A DNA stretch of 7,528 nucleotides, taken from the IMG/VR virus record IMGVR_UViG_2663762886_000006. The stretch is one strand, 5' to 3'. Below are positions 1 to 7,528 of the stretch, piece after piece. Positions within the stretch are counted from its first letter, which is position 1, and each line of letters opens with the position of its first letter. The notes below the pieces were generated by a model. It had not been told where the DNA came from, did no database searches, and saw nothing but the letters and a program-made list of their open reading frames with translations. Source of the stretch: a virus (Duplodnaviria > Heunggongvirae > Uroviricota > Caudoviricetes). The position numbers were made by a program, and so were the translations under genes.

Positions 1-6
1 TGAGGA

Positions 7-1276
7 ATGGGTAAAGGCAGCAGTAAGGGGCATACCCCGCGCGAAGCGAAGGACAACCTGAAGTCCACGCAGCTGCTGAGTGTGATCGATGCCATCAGCG
101 AAGGGCCGGTTGAAGGTCCGGTGGATGGATTAAAAAGCGTGCTGCTGAACAGTACGCCGGTGCTGGACAGTGAGGGGAATACCAACATCTCCGGCGTCAC
201 GGTGGTGTTCCGGGCAGGTGAGCAGGAGCAGTCACCGCCGGAGGGATTTGAATCCTCCGGCTCCGAGACGGTGCTGGGTACGGAAGTGAAATATGACACG
301 CCGATCACCCGGACCATCACGTCGGCAAACATTGACCGACTGCGTTTTACCTTCGGTGTACAGGCACTGGTGGAAACCACCTCAAAGGGAGACAGGAATC
401 CGTCTGAAGTTCGCCTGCTGGTTCAGATACAGCGTAACGGTGGCTGGGTGACGGAAAAAGACATCACCATTAAGGGCAAAACCACCTCGCAGTATCTGGC
501 CTCGGTGGTGGTGGATAACCTGCCGCCGCGCCCGTTTAATATCCGGATGCGCAGAATGACGCCGGACAGCACCACAGACCAGCTGCAGAACAAAACGCTC
601 TGGTCGTCATACACCGAAATCATCGATGTGAAACAGTGCTACCCGAACACTGCACTGGTCGGCGTACAGGTGGACTCGGAGCAGTTCGGCAGCCAGCAGG
701 TGAGTCGTAATTATCATCTTCGCGGGCGCATTCTGCAGGTGCCGTCGAACTATAATCCGCAGACGCGGCAATACAGCGGTATCTGGGACGGAACGTTAAA
801 ACCGGCATACAGCAACAACATGGCCTGGTGTCTGTGGGATATGCTGACCCACCCGCGCTACGGCATGGGGAAACGTCTTGGTGCGGCGGATGTGGACAAA
901 TGGGCGCTGTATGTCATCGGCCAGTACTGCGACCAGTCAGTGCCGGACGGCTTTGGCGGCACGGAGCCGCGCATCACCTGTAATGCGTACCTGACCACAC
1001 AGCGCAAGGCGTGGGATGTGCTCAGTGATTTCTGCTCGGCGATGCGCTGTATGCCGGTATGGAACGGGCAGACGCTGACGTTCGTGCAGGACCGACCGTC
1101 GGATAAGGTGTGGACCTATAACCGCAGTAATGTGGTGATGCCGGATGATGGCGCGCCGTTCCGCTACAGCTTCAGCGCCCTGAAAGACCGCCATAATGCC
1201 GTTGAGGTGAACTGGATTGACCCGGATAACGGCTGGGAGACGGCGACAGAGCTTGTGGAGGATACGCAGGCCATTG
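7..1276 (+). CDS. J: Host specificity / tail tip protein J, N-terminal fragment (codons 1-423), 3'-truncated at the n junction at 1277
   Basis: ATG at 7 directly after a TGA at 1-3. The translation MGKGSSKGHTPREAKDNLKSTQLLSVIDAISEGP... matches the lambda gpJ N-terminus as I recall it, with only a few substitutions. The frame is open to 1276 (...EDTQAI). The listed ORF 7..1407 is an artefact that crosses the n at 1277 into fragment B out of frame. Confidence 0.9.
160..1276 (+). repeat. About 1.1-kb direct repeat of J codons 52-423 (copy 1; copy 2 is 1278-2394), ~98-99% identity
   Basis: By-eye alignment at a constant offset of +1118. About 15 substitutions spotted, several non-synonymous (GGC->AGC Gly->Ser, TAC->TGG Tyr->Trp, CCG->CAG Pro->Gln, ACC->GCC Thr->Ala). 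Confidence 0.9.
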
Positions 1277-1277
1277 N

Positions 1278-4200
1278 GTGCTGGACAGTGAGGGGAATAC
1301 CAACATCTCCGGCGTCACGGTGGTGTTCCGGGCAGGTGAGCAGGAGCAGTCACCGCCGGAGGGATTTGAATCCTCCGGCTCCGAGACGGTGCTGGGTACG
1401 GAAGTGAAATATGACACGCCGATCACCCGGACCATCACGTCGGCAAACATTGACCGACTGCGTTTTACCTTCGGTGTACAGGCACTGGTGGAAACCACCT
1501 CAAAGGGAGACAGGAATCCGTCTGAAGTTCGCCTGCTGGTTCAGATACAGCGTAACGGTGGCTGGGTGACGGAAAAAGACATCACCATTAAGGGCAAAAC
1601 CACCTCGCAGTATCTGGCCTCGGTGGTGGTGGATAACCTGCCGCCGCGCCCGTTTAATATCCGGATGCGCAGAATGACGCCGGACAGCACCACAGACCAG
1701 CTGCAGAACAAAACGCTCTGGTCGTCATACACCGAAATCATCGATGTGAAACAGTGCTACCCGAACACGGCACTGGTCGGCGTACAGGTGGATTCGGAGC
1801 AGTTCGGCAGCCAGCAGGTGAGCCGTAATTATCATCTTCGCGGGCGCATTCTGCAGGTGCCGTCGAACTATAATCCGCAGACGCGGCAATACAGCGGTAT
1901 CTGGGACGGAACGTTAAAACCGGCATACAGCAACAACATGGCCTGGTGTCTGTGGGATATGCTGACCCATCCGCGCTATGGCATGGGGAAACGTCTTGGT
2001 GCGGCAGATGTGGATAAATGGGCGCTGTATGTCATCGGCCAGTACTGTGACCAGTCGGTGCCGGACGGCTTTGGCAGCACGGAGCCGCGCATCACCTGTA
2101 ATGCCTGGCTGACCACACAGCGCAAGGCGTGGGATGTGCTCAGTGATTTCTGCTCGGCGATGCGCTGTATGCCGGTATGGAACGGGCAGACGCTGACGTT
2201 CGTGCAGGACCGACAGTCGGATAAGGTGTGGGCCTATAACCGCAGTAATGTGGTGATGCCGGATGATGGCGCGCCGTTCCGCTACAGTTTCAGCGCCCTG
2301 AAAGACCGCCATAATGCCGTTGAGGTGAACTGGATTGACCCGGATAACGGCTGGGAGACGGCGACAGAGCTTGTGGAGGATACGCAGGCCATTGTCCGTT
2401 ACGGTCGTAACGTCACGAAGATGGATGCTTTTGGCTGTACCAGCCGGGGGCAGGCACACCGCGCCGGGCTGTGGCTGATTAAAACAGAACTGCTGGAAAC
2501 GCAGACCGTGGACTTCAGCGTGGGCGCAGAAGGGCTTCGCCATGTGCCGGGCGATGTCATTGAAATCTGTGATGATGACTATGCGGGTATCAGCATCGGC
2601 GGGCGCGTGCTGGCGGTAAACAGCCAGACCCGGACGCTGACGCTCGACCGTGAAATCACGCTGCCATCCTCCGGCACCACGCTGATAAGCCTGGTTGACG
2701 GGCAGGGGAATCCGGTCAGCGTGGAGGTCCAGTCCGTCACCGACGGCGTGAAGGTAAAAGTGAGCCGTGTTCCTGACGGTGTTGCTGAATACAGCGTGTG
2801 GGGGCTGAAGCTGCCGACGTTGCGCCAGCGCCTGTTCCGCTGTGTGAGTATCCGTGAGAACGATGACGGCACGTATGCCATCACTGCCGTGCAGCATGTA
2901 CCGGAAAAAGAAGCCATCGTGGATAACGGGGCGCACTTTGACGGCGACCAGAGCGGCACGGTGAATGGTGTCACGCCGCCAGCGGTGCAGCACCTGACTG
3001 CCGAAGTCACCGCAGACAGCGGGGAATATCAGGTGCTGGCGCGCTGGGACACGCCGAAGGTGGTGAAGGGCGTGAGCTTTATGCTTCGCCTGACCGTGGC
3101 AGCGGATGACGGCAGTGAGCGGCTGGTCAGCACGGCCCGGACGACGGAAACCACTTACCGCTTCACACAACTGGCGCTGGGGAACTACAGGCTGACAGTC
3201 CGGGCAGTAAATGCGTGGGGGCAGCAGGGCGATCCGGCGTCGGTATCGTTCCGGATTGCCGCACCGGCAGCGCTGTCGCGGATTGAGCTGACGCCGGGCT
3301 ATTTTCAGATAACCGCCACGCCGCATCTTGCGGTTTATGATCCGACGGTACAGTTTGAGTTCTGGTTCTCGGAAAAGCGGATTGCGGATATCAGGCAGGT
3401 TGAAACCACAGCACGCTATCTTGGCACGGCGCTGTACTGGATAGCCGCCAGTATCAATATCAAACCGGGCCATGATTATTACTTTTATATCCGCAGTGTG
3501 AACACCGTTGGCAAATCGGCATTCGTGGAGGCTGTTGGTCAGCCGAGTGATGATGCATCCGGTTATCTGGATTTTTTCAAAGGCGAGATAGGGAAAACCC
3601 ATCTGGCTCAGGAGCTGTGGACGCAGATTGATAACGGTCAGCTTGCGCCTGACCTGGCTGAAATCAGGACGTCCATTACGGATGTCAGCAATGAAATCAC
3701 GCAGACCGTCAATAAGAAACTGGAAGACCAGAGTGCGGCAATTCAGCAGATACAGAAGGTTCAGGTTGATACAAATAATAACCTGAACAGCATGTGGGCT
3801 GTGAAGCTGCAGCAGATGCAGGACGGACGCCTTTATATCGCGGGTATTGGTGCCGGTATTGAGAACACCCCTGACGGCATGCAGAGTCAGGTGCTGCTGG
3901 CGGCGGACAGGATTGCGATGGTTAATCCTGCGAATGGCAACACAAAACCGATGTTTGTTGGTCAGGGCGATCAGATATTCATGAACGACGTGTTCCTGAA
4001 ACGCCTGACGGCCCCCACCATTACCAGCGGTGGAAATCCATCGGCATTTTCCCTGACTCCGGACGGAAAGCTGACCGCTAAAAATGCGGATATCAGTGGC
4101 AGTGTGAATGCGAACGCCGGGACGCTCAACAATGTCACGGTAAATGAAAACTGTACGATTAAGGGCATGCTGGAGGCGACTCAGGTCAGAGGTGACTTCG

Positions 4201-4622
4201 TTAAAGCTGTATCCAAATCATTTCCGAAACAGGCTGGTACGTGGGGTAACACGGAAACACCAAACGGGACGGTTACAGTCACCATAAGCGATGATCATAA
4301 CTTTGACCGCCAGATTATTATTCCGCCCATTATTTTTAACGGTATAGCGTATGACGATCCGGGGAGCGGAAATAACCCAGGAGGCACGCGATACACGGGT
4401 TATGGTTTTGAAGTTCGCAAAAACGGCGTATTAATCGCATCCAGAGAAACTAAAGGTGCCATTCCCGGTAGTTACAGTGCAGTTATTGATATGCCTAGTG
4501 GTGGTGGTAGCGTCACTCTGGAGTTTAAGATTTTCCAGAAAGGCAATCAGGGGGCAGGCAATATCACCGACTGTACGGTGATTGTGACCAAAAAAGCGGC
4601 TTCCGGCATCAGTATTCGTTGA
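1278..4622 (+). CDS. J: Host specificity / tail tip protein J, 5'-truncated (begins at the equivalent of codon 52), complete to the TGA stop; conserved N-terminal and FN3-like middle regions, non-lambda C-terminal receptor-binding region
   Basis: The 1114-codon open frame starts immediately after the n at 1277. Its first ~1.1 kb repeats 160-1276 at ~98-99% identity. The middle region matches lambda J from memory (e.g. [67 protein letters not shown]). The C-terminus (...GISIR) differs from lambda (...GISVV). The GTG at 1278 is not a real start; it aligns to Val52 of fragment A. Confidence 0.9.
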
Positions 4623-4644
4623 AATATTTATAACCCCAATAAAT

Positions 4645-4668
4645 GGCGTCAGGAATGACGCCTTTTTT
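4645..4668 (+). terminator. Rho-independent terminator downstream of J
   Basis: Perfect 7-bp stem GGCGTCA (4645-4651) / TGACGCC (4656-4662) with a GGAA loop, followed by TTTTTT (4663-4668), 23 nt after the J stop codon. Confidence 0.75.
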
Positions 4669-4681
4669 ATTGCAGAAAAGC

Positions 4682-4687
4682 GAGAGG
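4682..4687 (+). promoter_or_regulatory. Shine-Dalgarno-like GAGAGG, 5 nt upstream of the ATG at 4693
   Basis: Purine-rich GAGAGG with 5-nt spacing to the ATG; position is appropriate for the downstream gene start. Confidence 0.5.
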
Positions 4688-4692
4688 TAATT

Positions 4693-4699
4693 ATGCGTA
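4693..4699 (+). CDS. First 7 nt (ATG CGT A) of the gene downstream of J, truncated by nn at 4700-4701; possibly lom-like (outer membrane protein) by position and first two codons only
   Basis: ATG preceded by an SD and a terminator. In lambda the gene after J is lom, which I recall beginning ATGCGTAAT (Met-Arg-Asn). Only two codons are visible, so the identity is weak inference. Confidence 0.3.
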
Positions 4700-4701
4700 N
4701 N

Positions 4702-6295
4702 TCAGGTGCTGGCGCGCTGGGACACGCCGAAGGTGGTGAAGGGGGTGAGCTTTATGCTTCGCCTGACCGTGGCAGCGGATGACGGCAGTGAGCGGCTGGT
4801 CAGCACGGCCCGGACGACGGAAACCACATACCGCTTCACGCAACTGGCGCTGGGACGGTACACGCTGACAGTCCGGGCGGTAAATGCCTGGGGACAGCAG
4901 GGCGATCCGGCGTCGGTATCGTTCAGGATTGCCGCACCGGTAGCACCGTCGCGGATTGAGCTGACGCCGGGCTATTTTCAGATAACTGCCACGCCGCATC
5001 TTGCGGTTTATGATCCGACGGTACAGTTTGAGTTCTGGTTCTCGGAAAAGCGGATTGCGGATATCAGGCAGGTTGAAACCACAGCACGCTATCTTGGCAC
5101 GGCGCTGTACTGGATAGCCGCCAGTATCAATATCAAACCGGGCCATGATTATTACTTTTATATCCGCAGTGTGAACACCGTTGGCAAATCGGCATTCGTG
5201 GAGGCTGTTGGTCAGCCGAGTGATGATGCATCCGGTTATCTGGATTTTTTCAAAGGCGAGATAGGGAAAACCCATCTGGCTCAGGAGCTGTGGACGCAGA
5301 TTGATAACGGTCAGCTTGCGCCTGACCTGGCTGAAATCAGGACGTCCATTACGGATGTCAGCAATGAAATCACGCAGACCGTCAATAAGAAACTGGAAGA
5401 CCAGAGTGCGGCAATTCAGCAGATACAGAAGGTTCAGGTTGATACAAATAATAACCTGAACAGCATGTGGGCTGTGAAGCTGCAGCAGATGCAGGACGGA
5501 CGCCTTTATATCGCGGGTATTGGTGCCGGTATTGAGAACACCCCTGACGGCATGCAGAGTCAGGTGCTGCTGGCGGCGGACAGGATTGCGATGGTTAATC
5601 CTGCGAATGGCAACACAAAACCGATGTTTGTTGGTCAGGGCGATCAGATATTCATGAACGACGTGTTCCTGAAACGCCTGACGGCCCCCACCATTACCAG
5701 CGGTGGAAATCCATCGGCATTTTCCCTGACTCCGGACGGAAAGCTGACCGCTAAAAATGCGGATATCAGTGGCAGTGTGAATGCGAACGCCGGGACGCTC
5801 AACAATGTCACGGTAAATGAAAACTGTACGATTAAGGGCATGCTGGAGGCGACTCAGGTCAGAGGTGACTTCGTTAAAGCTGTATCCAAATCATTTCCGA
5901 AACAGGCTGGTACGTGGGGTAACACGGAAACACCAAACGGGACGGTTACAGTCACCATAAGCGATGATCATAACTTTGACCGCCAGATTATTATTCCGCC
6001 CATTATTTTTAACGGTATAGCGTATGACGATCCGGGGAGCGGAAATAACCCAGGAGGCACGCGATACACGGGTTATGGTTTTGAAGTTCGCAAAAACGGC
6101 GTATTAATCGCATCCAGAGAAACTAAAGGTGCCATTCCCGGTAGTTACAGTGCAGTTATTGATATGCCTAGTGGTGGTGGTAGCGTCACTCTGGAGTTTA
6201 AGATTTTCCAGAAAGGCAATCAGGGGGCAGGCAATATCACCGACTGTACGGTGATTGTGACCAAAAAAGCGGCTTCCGGCATCAGTATTCGTTGA
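4702..6295 (+). CDS. J: Host specificity protein J, C-terminal fragment (about 531 codons, codon phase starts at 4703), second copy of the J 3' end with stop
   Basis: By eye, identical to 3029-4622 from about 5000 onward; the 5' ~300 nt carries about ten substitutions relative to fragment B and instead matches fragment D. Same TGA stop context (...[10 protein letters not shown]). Confidence 0.88.
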
Positions 6296-6317
6296 AATAT
6301 TTATAACCCCAATAAAT

Positions 6318-6341
6318 GGCGTCAGGAATGACGCCTTTTTT
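6318..6341 (+). terminator. Rho-independent terminator, second copy
   Basis: Identical hairpin GGCGTCA-GGAA-TGACGCC plus TTTTTT; same offset (+1673) as the rest of the B/C repeat. Confidence 0.75.
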
Positions 6342-6354
6342 ATTGCAGAAAAGC

Positions 6355-6360
6355 GAGAGG
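6355..6360 (+). promoter_or_regulatory. Shine-Dalgarno-like GAGAGG, second copy, 5 nt upstream of the ATG at 6366
   Basis: Same sequence and spacing as 4682-4687. Confidence 0.5.
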
Positions 6361-6365
6361 TAATT

Positions 6366-6372
6366 ATGCGTA
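6366..6372 (+). CDS. First 7 nt (ATGCGTA) of the downstream gene, second copy, truncated by the N run
   Basis: Identical to 4693-4699 and cut at the same nucleotide. Confidence 0.3.
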
Positions 6373-6390
6373 NNNNNNNNNNNNNNNNNN
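6373..6390. other. Assembly gap (18 N); two further ambiguous junctions lie at 1277 (n) and 4700-4701 (nn)
   Basis: Runs of n in the sequence; the flanking sequence is non-collinear (J restarts upstream on the right-hand side of each junction). Confidence 0.95.
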
Positions 6391-7528
6391 CAGCACGGCC
6401 CGGACGACGGAAACCACATACCGCTTCACGCAACTGGCGCTGGGACGGTACACGCTGACAGTCCGGGCGGTAAATGCCTGGGGACAGCAGGGCGATCCGG
6501 CGTCGGTATCGTTCAGGATTGCCGCACCGGTAGCACCGTCGCGGATTGAGCTGACGCCGGGCTATTTTCAGATAACTGCCACGCCGCATCTTGCGGTTTA
6601 TGATCCGACGGTACAGTTTGAGTTCTGGTTCTCGGAAACGCGGATTACCGATATCAGGCAGGTTGAAACCACAGCCCGCTACCTTGGCGCGGGGCTGTAC
6701 TGGATAGCCGCCAGTATCAATATCAAACCGGGCCATGATTATTACTTTTATATCCGCAGTGTGAACACCGTTGGCAAATCGGCATTCGTGGAGGCCGTCG
6801 GTCGGGCGAGCGATGATGCGGAAGGTTACCTGGATTTTTTCAAAGGCAAGATAACCGAATCCCATCTCGGTAAAGAGCTGCTGGAAAAAGTTGATCTGAC
6901 GGAGGATAACGCCAGCAGACTGGATGAGTTTTCGAAAGAGTGGAAGGACGCTAACGATAAATGGAATGCGATGTGGGGCGTCAAAATTGAGCAGACCAAA
7001 GACGGCAAACATTATGTCGCGGGTATTGGCCTCAGCATGGAGGACACGGAGGAAGGCAAGCTGAGCCAGTTTCTGGTTGCCGCCAATCGTATCGCGTTTA
7101 TTGACCCGGCAAACGGGAATGAAACGCCGATGTTTGTGGCGCAGGGCAACCAGATATTCATGAACGACGTGTTCCTGAAGCGCCTGACAGCCCCCGCCAT
7201 TACCAGCGGTGGCAGTCCTCCGGTATTTTCCCTGACATCAGACGGAAAGCTGACCGCTAAAAATGCGGATATCAGTGGTAGTGTGAATGCGAACTCAGGA
7301 ACGCTCAACAATGTCACGATTAACCAGAACTGTACGATTAAGGGCATGCTGGAGGCGACCCAGGTCAGAGGGGATTTCGTTAAAGCTGTATCAAAAGCCT
7401 TCCCGAAAAAAGTCGGTACGTGGGGTAACACGGAAACACCAGACGGTACGGTTACAGTCACCATCAGCGATGATCATAACTTTGACCGCCAGATTATTAT
7501 TCCGCCCATTATTTTTAACGGTATAGCG
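6391..7528 (+). CDS. J: Host specificity protein J, internal/C-terminal fragment of a third, mosaic allele (codon phase starts at 6392; truncated at both ends by the N run and the window edge)
   Basis: My own translation from 6392 is open to 7528: [46 protein letters not shown]...[117 protein letters not shown]...[53 protein letters not shown]. The central part matches lambda J from memory. This frame is not in the supplied ORF track. Confidence 0.85.

Follow-up and report, generated by a model that had tools for sequence, protein, structure and literature searches.

The window, by which we mean the whole 7528 nt stretch of DNA analysed here, consists of four stretches of one type of gene, designated pieces A to D, with runs of N between them. 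The pieces overlap one another and are out of register, and every discontinuity in the window sits on an N run. J, the lambda gpJ-like tail-tip gene represented by all four pieces, is single per prophage in every finished genome and phage examined; hence, the window is a scaffold in which different versions of the same gene have been strung together. The coordinates of the pieces, the joins between them and the features discussed below are listed in Table 1.

Table 1. Features of the window. J, gpJ-like gene; sibB and sibD, the two alleles of the sister loci described in the text; left and right refer to the two sides of the switch interval.
Feature	Position	Strand	Description
Piece A	1..1276	+	5′ part of lambda gpJ-like tail-tip gene; ATG at 7; J nt 1-1270
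Join A/B	1277..1277	.	Single N; equivalent position B 2395
Piece B	1278..4699	+	J from nt 154 through stop codon 4620-4622, J-lom spacer, 7 nt of lom-like gene
sibD-type patches in B	2486-2618, 2820-2900, 3080-3099	+	Comparison with sister alleles
sibB-type parts of B	2675-2780, 3071, 3155 onward	+	Comparison with sister alleles; sibB elsewhere outside the three patches
B counterpart of variable patch 4744-4987	3071..3314	+	GNYRL lambda-like; PAALS with private L
Terminator-like hairpin in B	4645..4662	+	Followed by T run; between J and lom
Join B/C	4700..4701	.	NN
Piece C	4702..6372	+	Restart at equivalent of B 3029; last base same as B
C-left	4702..4987	+	D-type haplotype; all 16 differences from B
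B/C difference sites	4744, 4828, 4840, 4855-4858, 4863, 4879, 4888, 4894, 4925, 4941, 4945, 4947, 4987	+	Comparison of B and C
Switch interval	4988..5048	+	61 nt identical in B, C and D; J residues about 731-751
C-right	5049..6372	+	Identical to B 3376-4699 and to sister B-type allele
Terminator-like hairpin in C	6318..6335		Identical copy of that in B
Join C/D	6373..6390	.	N18
Piece D	6391..7528	+	Second J allele, 434/mEp460 type; restart at equivalent of C 4801

Piece B contains the Pfam domains of gpJ (PF24801, PF13550, PF24421, PF24489, PF09327 and PF12421), complete, in order and above the cut-offs. The domain order is FNIII-A, Phage-tail_3, two Ig-like domains, the tail-tip fibre and the C-terminal receptor-binding domain. 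All four gpJ domains within the span of piece D are present there. Several structures of lambda gpJ have been solved (PDB 8iyk, 8k35 and 8xcg), and the comparison of the protein encoded by piece B with chain 8iyk_J gave E = 0, with query residues 2–1113 aligned to chain residues 53–1131, collinear to the C-terminus. Within the lambda gpJ family, the gene is unremarkable.

In close relatives, the tail assembly genes are followed by J, lom and the side tail fibre gene; of this order, the window holds the start of J, the spacer and the first bases of lom. A hairpin that resembles a terminator, GGCGTCAGGAATGACGCC, lies between J and lom and leads into a T run. The record of phage Ayreon has a terminator feature between the same two genes, within the span matched by piece B. 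The allele shared by B and C resembles the J genes of phages cdtI, ev099 and Ayreon, and that of D resembles those of mEp460 and 434. The two differ most in the tail-tip fibre (5206–5600 versus 6796–7106), where B and C carry an extra 84 nt (28 residues), and they reconverge to 88–100% identity at the start of the receptor-binding domain. Thus, D is set apart from B and C chiefly by its fibre, and its choice of receptor may be the same.

The ends of the pieces were inspected separately. The position of B equivalent to the single N at 1277 is T or C among natural alleles, which gives V or A in the protein, and this N may represent an unresolved polymorphic base rather than a true gap. Pieces B and C share the end ATGCGTA (4693–4699 and 6366–6372), which is the start of the lom-like gene. 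This common end falls 2 nt short of the point where natural lom alleles begin to diverge, with G, C or T at that site, and looks like a graph branch point. The abutment of piece ends on natural polymorphic sites was considered as evidence in general; it holds, but chance alone would produce it about 52% of the time, and it was not retained as evidence, except for the shared end of B and C. An attempt to derive the assembler word length from the distances between piece ends and the nearest variant was also abandoned, as the values, counted by hand, were 106, 42, 27 and 63 nt and mutually inconsistent.

Pieces B, C and D were compared position by position, with alignment offsets of 1673 for B versus C and 1590 for C versus D. 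B and C differ at 16 nucleotides, rather than at the ten or so first estimated, and all of these lie inside 4744–4987. Four of the 16 differences change the amino acid from B to C, namely N687R and R689T (GNYRL to GRYTL), and A715V and L717P (PAALS to PVAPS), so that both contrasts noted earlier were confirmed at the protein level. Because the differences are mostly synonymous, both haplotypes are considered to be genuine alleles and not sequencing noise. C is exactly equal to B over 4988–6372 (1385 nt) and exactly equal to D over 4801–5048 (248 nt), with the first mismatch at 5049. The D-type patch in C at 4851–4869 reads GGGACGGTACACGCTGACA. At all of the B/C sites that lie within D (15/15), D sides with C, as the original prediction had it, and the remaining site, 4744, is outside D. 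The predicted limits required small corrections: the identity of B and C up to 6372 stands but begins at 4988, slightly earlier than the proposed position of about 5000, and the match of C to D, proposed for 4801–5056, stands as far as 5048, the last 8 nt containing one mismatch. Past 5048, the mean identity of C and D is 74%, with a trough in the fibre region, where the 84 nt are missing from D.

The distribution of these sites is far from random. The B/C differences are confined to the first 286 of 1671 nt (Fisher P = 4e-13; maximum chi-square permutation, 0/2000). The three-way informative sites comprise 15 sites with C = D ≠ B, followed by 254 sites with B = C ≠ D and zero sites with B = D ≠ C; the P value for this sorting is 7e-25. 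The term “chimeric” is a relative label, since, among three sequences alone, any could be called the recombinant. C-left codes for all but the N-terminal third of the first Ig-like domain (PF24421) and extends into the beginning of the second (PF24489). The patch of SNPs is mostly in the first of these domains, and the switch interval encodes 21 residues at the start of the second. Chi sites were sought in the window as a reason for the position of the exchange point, and none are present. For the comparison with other loci, the bases at 4987 and 5049 served as a junction code, in which T..A denotes the C type, T..C the D type and C..A the B type. Site 4744 was rejected as a discriminator, because natural carriers of both junction types have either base, which makes it uninformative.

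A scan of IMG/VR with two stretches carrying the private variants of piece B found 21 sister loci. They are taken to be prophage regions of isolate genomes, the basis for this being the contig naming only. The sister loci clearly belong to the same lineage as the window and carry two alleles, named sibB and sibD. The sibB allele is identical on N-free L020, L021 and L029, and L022 departs from it at 6 positions; L022 agrees with sibB at every discriminating site, its 6 other differences being unmapped. The sibD allele is consistent in L019, L025, L032 and L033, and piece D matches it at 100% over up to 984 nt. The part before 2618 of one haplotype display was set aside, as an indel in L032 shifts the register, and the sites located there were taken from separate comparisons.

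The segment 4702–5048 (347 nt) is found verbatim in the D-type allele of L019, L025 and L032, where it runs into D-right. The segment 4988–6372 is found verbatim in six sister B-type contigs, where it is preceded by B-left. C is an exact two-parent composite with no private sequence. The composition originally proposed for it, a D-type 5′ end joined to a B-identical 3′ part, is thereby exact, and both parents are also found as separate sister alleles. The C-type T..A junction occurs in 0/21 sister loci, and the loci that span the site show B-type or D-type junctions only. L019 and L025 hold both parental alleles, yet they contain parental junctions only. The window has all three junction types, B, C and D, in one small scaffold. 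In L033, the contig carrying C-left stops at the equivalent of 5022, within the 61-nt stretch, and is followed by a single N and a jump back of about 1.1 kb in J. This contig end suggests that the stretch is a branch node for assemblers in this lineage.

Single-N runs are present in 11 of the 21 sister loci. The loci that were dissected (L019, L024, L025, L033 and L038) are chains of overlapping J fragments, some with 3–4 J pieces in 5 kb, and the chaining looks like a systematic artefact of that assembly batch. Other B/D mosaics were found in the N-joined L019, L024, L028 and L032; their breakpoints differ per isolate, and one has the B-left/D-right form. The N-free contigs that carry this allele and span the mosaic sites (L020, L021, L027, L029 and L030) are pure sibB, and the N-free L036 has another allele that is more diverged. 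The sister scaffolds L023, L028, L036 and L038 also contain additional J copies of greater divergence, and so the lineage probably possesses more than two lambdoid tail modules.

Pieces A and B have irregularities of their own. A 160–1276 overlaps B 1278–2394 over 1117 nt, with 16 SNPs that are all located in 651–1170 and 491 identical nt ahead of them. At 13 of the 16 SNPs, A is equal to a third sister allele (L033), and, at the other 3, A has the common natural base and B a rare one. When set against the sister alleles, piece B alternates between sibB and sibD, switching six times, and has one private base (T at 2429); no better match to it than this patchwork was found among the other fetched alleles. 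The switch of B from 3071 to 3080 occurs over a shared stretch of only 8 bases; at all other switches, at least 39 nt are shared. Piece B is as suspect as C.

Taken together, C is probably an in silico chimera generated by an assembly path switch, with a rough probability of 0.6; we infer that the join was made by software. The source genome would contain at least two lambdoid prophages, the gpJ-like genes of which, sibB and sibD, would share long identical stretches. In the assembly graph, the alleles would merge wherever identity exceeds the word or overlap length, and the 61-nt stretch at 4988–5048 would be a merge point with B-left and D-left as entries and B-right and D-right as exits. 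C would then be a path that comes in via D-left and goes out via B-right, the correct paths being B and D. The scaffolder would have chained A, B, C and D with short N runs, since read pairs from the shared stretches would link them all. Paralogous prophage sequence is known to defeat short reads (PMC5359411).

The path switch is favoured because the record chains overlapping fragments of a single gene, because about half of the sister loci show single-N chains of a similar kind and because the sister loci spanning the site carry parental junctions only. It is further favoured by the sister contig that breaks within the same 61-nt stretch, by piece B, which is also a patchwork of the same two alleles, by the exact composition of C, which shows no private differences from the sister-lineage alleles, and by the end of B and C at the same base.

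Several points leave the path switch less than proven. The 61-nt stretch is short, and words of more than 62 nt, or well-handled reads of at least 100 nt, would need real support to cross it. The switch in B with 8 shared bases is one that a word graph cannot produce, and the sharing of at least 39 nt at the other switches is predicted by homologous recombination and a word graph alike. The co-occurrence of mosaics with N-joined scaffolds is confounded: a genome with two alleles is hard to assemble and is also able to undergo genuine recombination. Finally, finished genomes hold co-resident B-type and D-type J genes, as in strain 127, as well as near-identical duplicates, as in E. coli 377323_2f.

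The foremost alternative is that C is a real third J allele, which arose by recent recombination or gene conversion between co-resident B-type and D-type genes within the 61 nt, only the chaining being artefactual. We regard this as possible, at clearly less than even odds. Support for it comes from other genomes. In 5426 finished E. coli genomes, the 157-nt junction segment was found at an identity of at least 99% in the B version in 430 records, in the D version in 264 and in the C version in 23. Among the listed matches to the C version, four have full coverage, namely the complete genome of E. coli JX2, at 100%, and M45, MLI121 and MLI114. Site-by-site typing on gapped alignments distinguished two left haplogroups among natural loci. 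A D-type left part is joined to a B-type right part in JX2, M45 and LD93-1 and to a D-type right part in X14-3, 14EC007 and 13P460A. The exact 120-nt C junction is present on N-free contigs of one IMG/VR prophage and two metagenome assemblies (L010–L012), and, in all of IMG/VR, the C junction occurs on one unrelated contig only. The minimal T...A junction is also found in Escherichia albertii NBRC 107761 (L003). The presence of the same join on N-free sequence of unrelated origin indicates that exchange in this interval is a recurrent natural event, and its occurrence in unrelated finished genomes keeps the option of a natural recombinant alive.

The opportunity for such an exchange exists as well. 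E. coli genomes have a median of 3 J-homologous places, with a maximum of 16, and the finished genome of 377323_2f shows that near-identical J genes can be co-resident. Short tracts are readily exchanged among lambdoid phages, the median mosaic measuring 400–500 bp (De Paepe et al. 2014, PMC3945230), and short mosaics are common in temperate and defective E. coli phages (PMC3945230). The mostly synonymous nature of the 16 differences, which argues that both haplotypes are real, is in line with a real third allele too, and ordinary reads easily phase 61 nt, so that the assembler had the information needed. However, C lacks any private change and is 100% identical to both parents, and no sister locus spanning the site has its junction, not even the two with both parents. 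L019, L024, L028 and L032 each show a different mosaic, which looks stochastic rather than inherited. Moreover, non-reciprocal conversion would replace a parent, and, as the B, C and D junctions are all present, a third locus would be required.

Some features of the finished genomes are recorded here in their own right. The two J-lom regions of E. coli 377323_2f (NZ_CP039404.1; L013 and L014) are 1.4 Mb apart and differ at just 8 columns of a 4.2-kb alignment. The annotation marks both J genes as frameshifted, and the pair could represent a duplicated prophage or long-read indel errors. In E. coli 14EC007 (NZ_CP024131.1; L015), the D-type J is truncated near the 3′ end by an IS1A insertion. 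The closest finished E. coli sequences are 97–98% identical to B and C. No finished E. coli genome near-identical to B or C was found, and the phage records were no closer.

If the mosaics are real, they would form a standing generator of tail-tip diversity inside one genome. That co-resident lambdoid prophages swap tail-tip tracts so often that nearly every isolate has its own B/D patchwork is, in our estimation, unlikely. Less probable again, and in our estimation very unlikely, is a heterogeneous sample (a culture with a recombinant subpopulation, a mixed culture or induced phage DNA) from which the assembler emitted all variants. The three junction types within one small scaffold agree with such a sample, and prophage–prophage recombination on induction has reportedly been documented for E. 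coli O157, but the sequence bears no sign of a mixture, and the related records are taken, by their naming, as isolate-genome prophages. The idea that the window is a true tandem array, its four pieces being partial J cassettes that serve programmed tail-tip switching, for which the raw piece order in the record and nothing else speaks, is effectively refuted, given that each discontinuity is an N run, that finished genomes and phages examined contain no such array, J always being followed by lom and the side tail fibre gene, and that sister records chain the pieces in different orders; the window is not a real tandem array of J but chains versions of one gene.

No column of the window has more than two alleles (A/B; B versus C = D; B = C versus D). 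If C is an artefact, two J loci are therefore enough to account for the window, whereas a real C requires three. The location of the switch, which had been expected to inform on the number of J loci, does so only weakly for this reason. Under the path switch, C is no real biological object; the main rival would make it an event of a kind already known. If C is real, it adds one more case of the well-known mosaicism of lambdoid tail genes, a useful detail but an unsurprising one, with the Ig-like domains on one side of the exchange point and the fibre and receptor-binding part on the other. In practical terms, the gene order and the allele combinations of the record, those of both C and B, are not to be taken at face value. 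Counts of J loci, host-range allele typing and the inference of recombination from this assembly batch would mislead, surveys of prophages or tail genes based on these assemblies would be affected too, and the allele combinations in this record and in the sister records need read-level confirmation.

The gene itself compares closely with lambda gpJ, sharing the same domain order and collinearity; B and C differ from it by a fibre segment that is 28 residues longer and by another receptor-binding domain. Piece D is lambda/434-like in the fibre and B-like where the receptor-binding domain starts. The prophage misassembly described in E. coli O157 (Shaaban et al. 2016, PMC5359411) resembles the present case in that the tail genes of several lambdoid prophages are almost the same, contigs end where alleles branch and repeat fragments are chained into scaffolds. 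A difference is that the lineage of the window is not one of those well studied in that collection, finished E. coli being no higher than 97.2% identical to B. The likeness to the natural mosaicism that arises in lambdoid phage genes by relaxed homologous recombination (PMC3945230) lies in the 244-nt tract of D-type SNPs bounded by identical sequence, the size of which fits the reported median of 400–500 bp, and in the recurrence of the same junction in unrelated genomes. The difference is that both flanks of C are 100% identical to co-resident alleles and that the composite is present in a gap-ridden scaffold and not in the sister loci. Both mosaic J genes and misassembled prophage repeats are well known (PMC3945230, PMC5359411).
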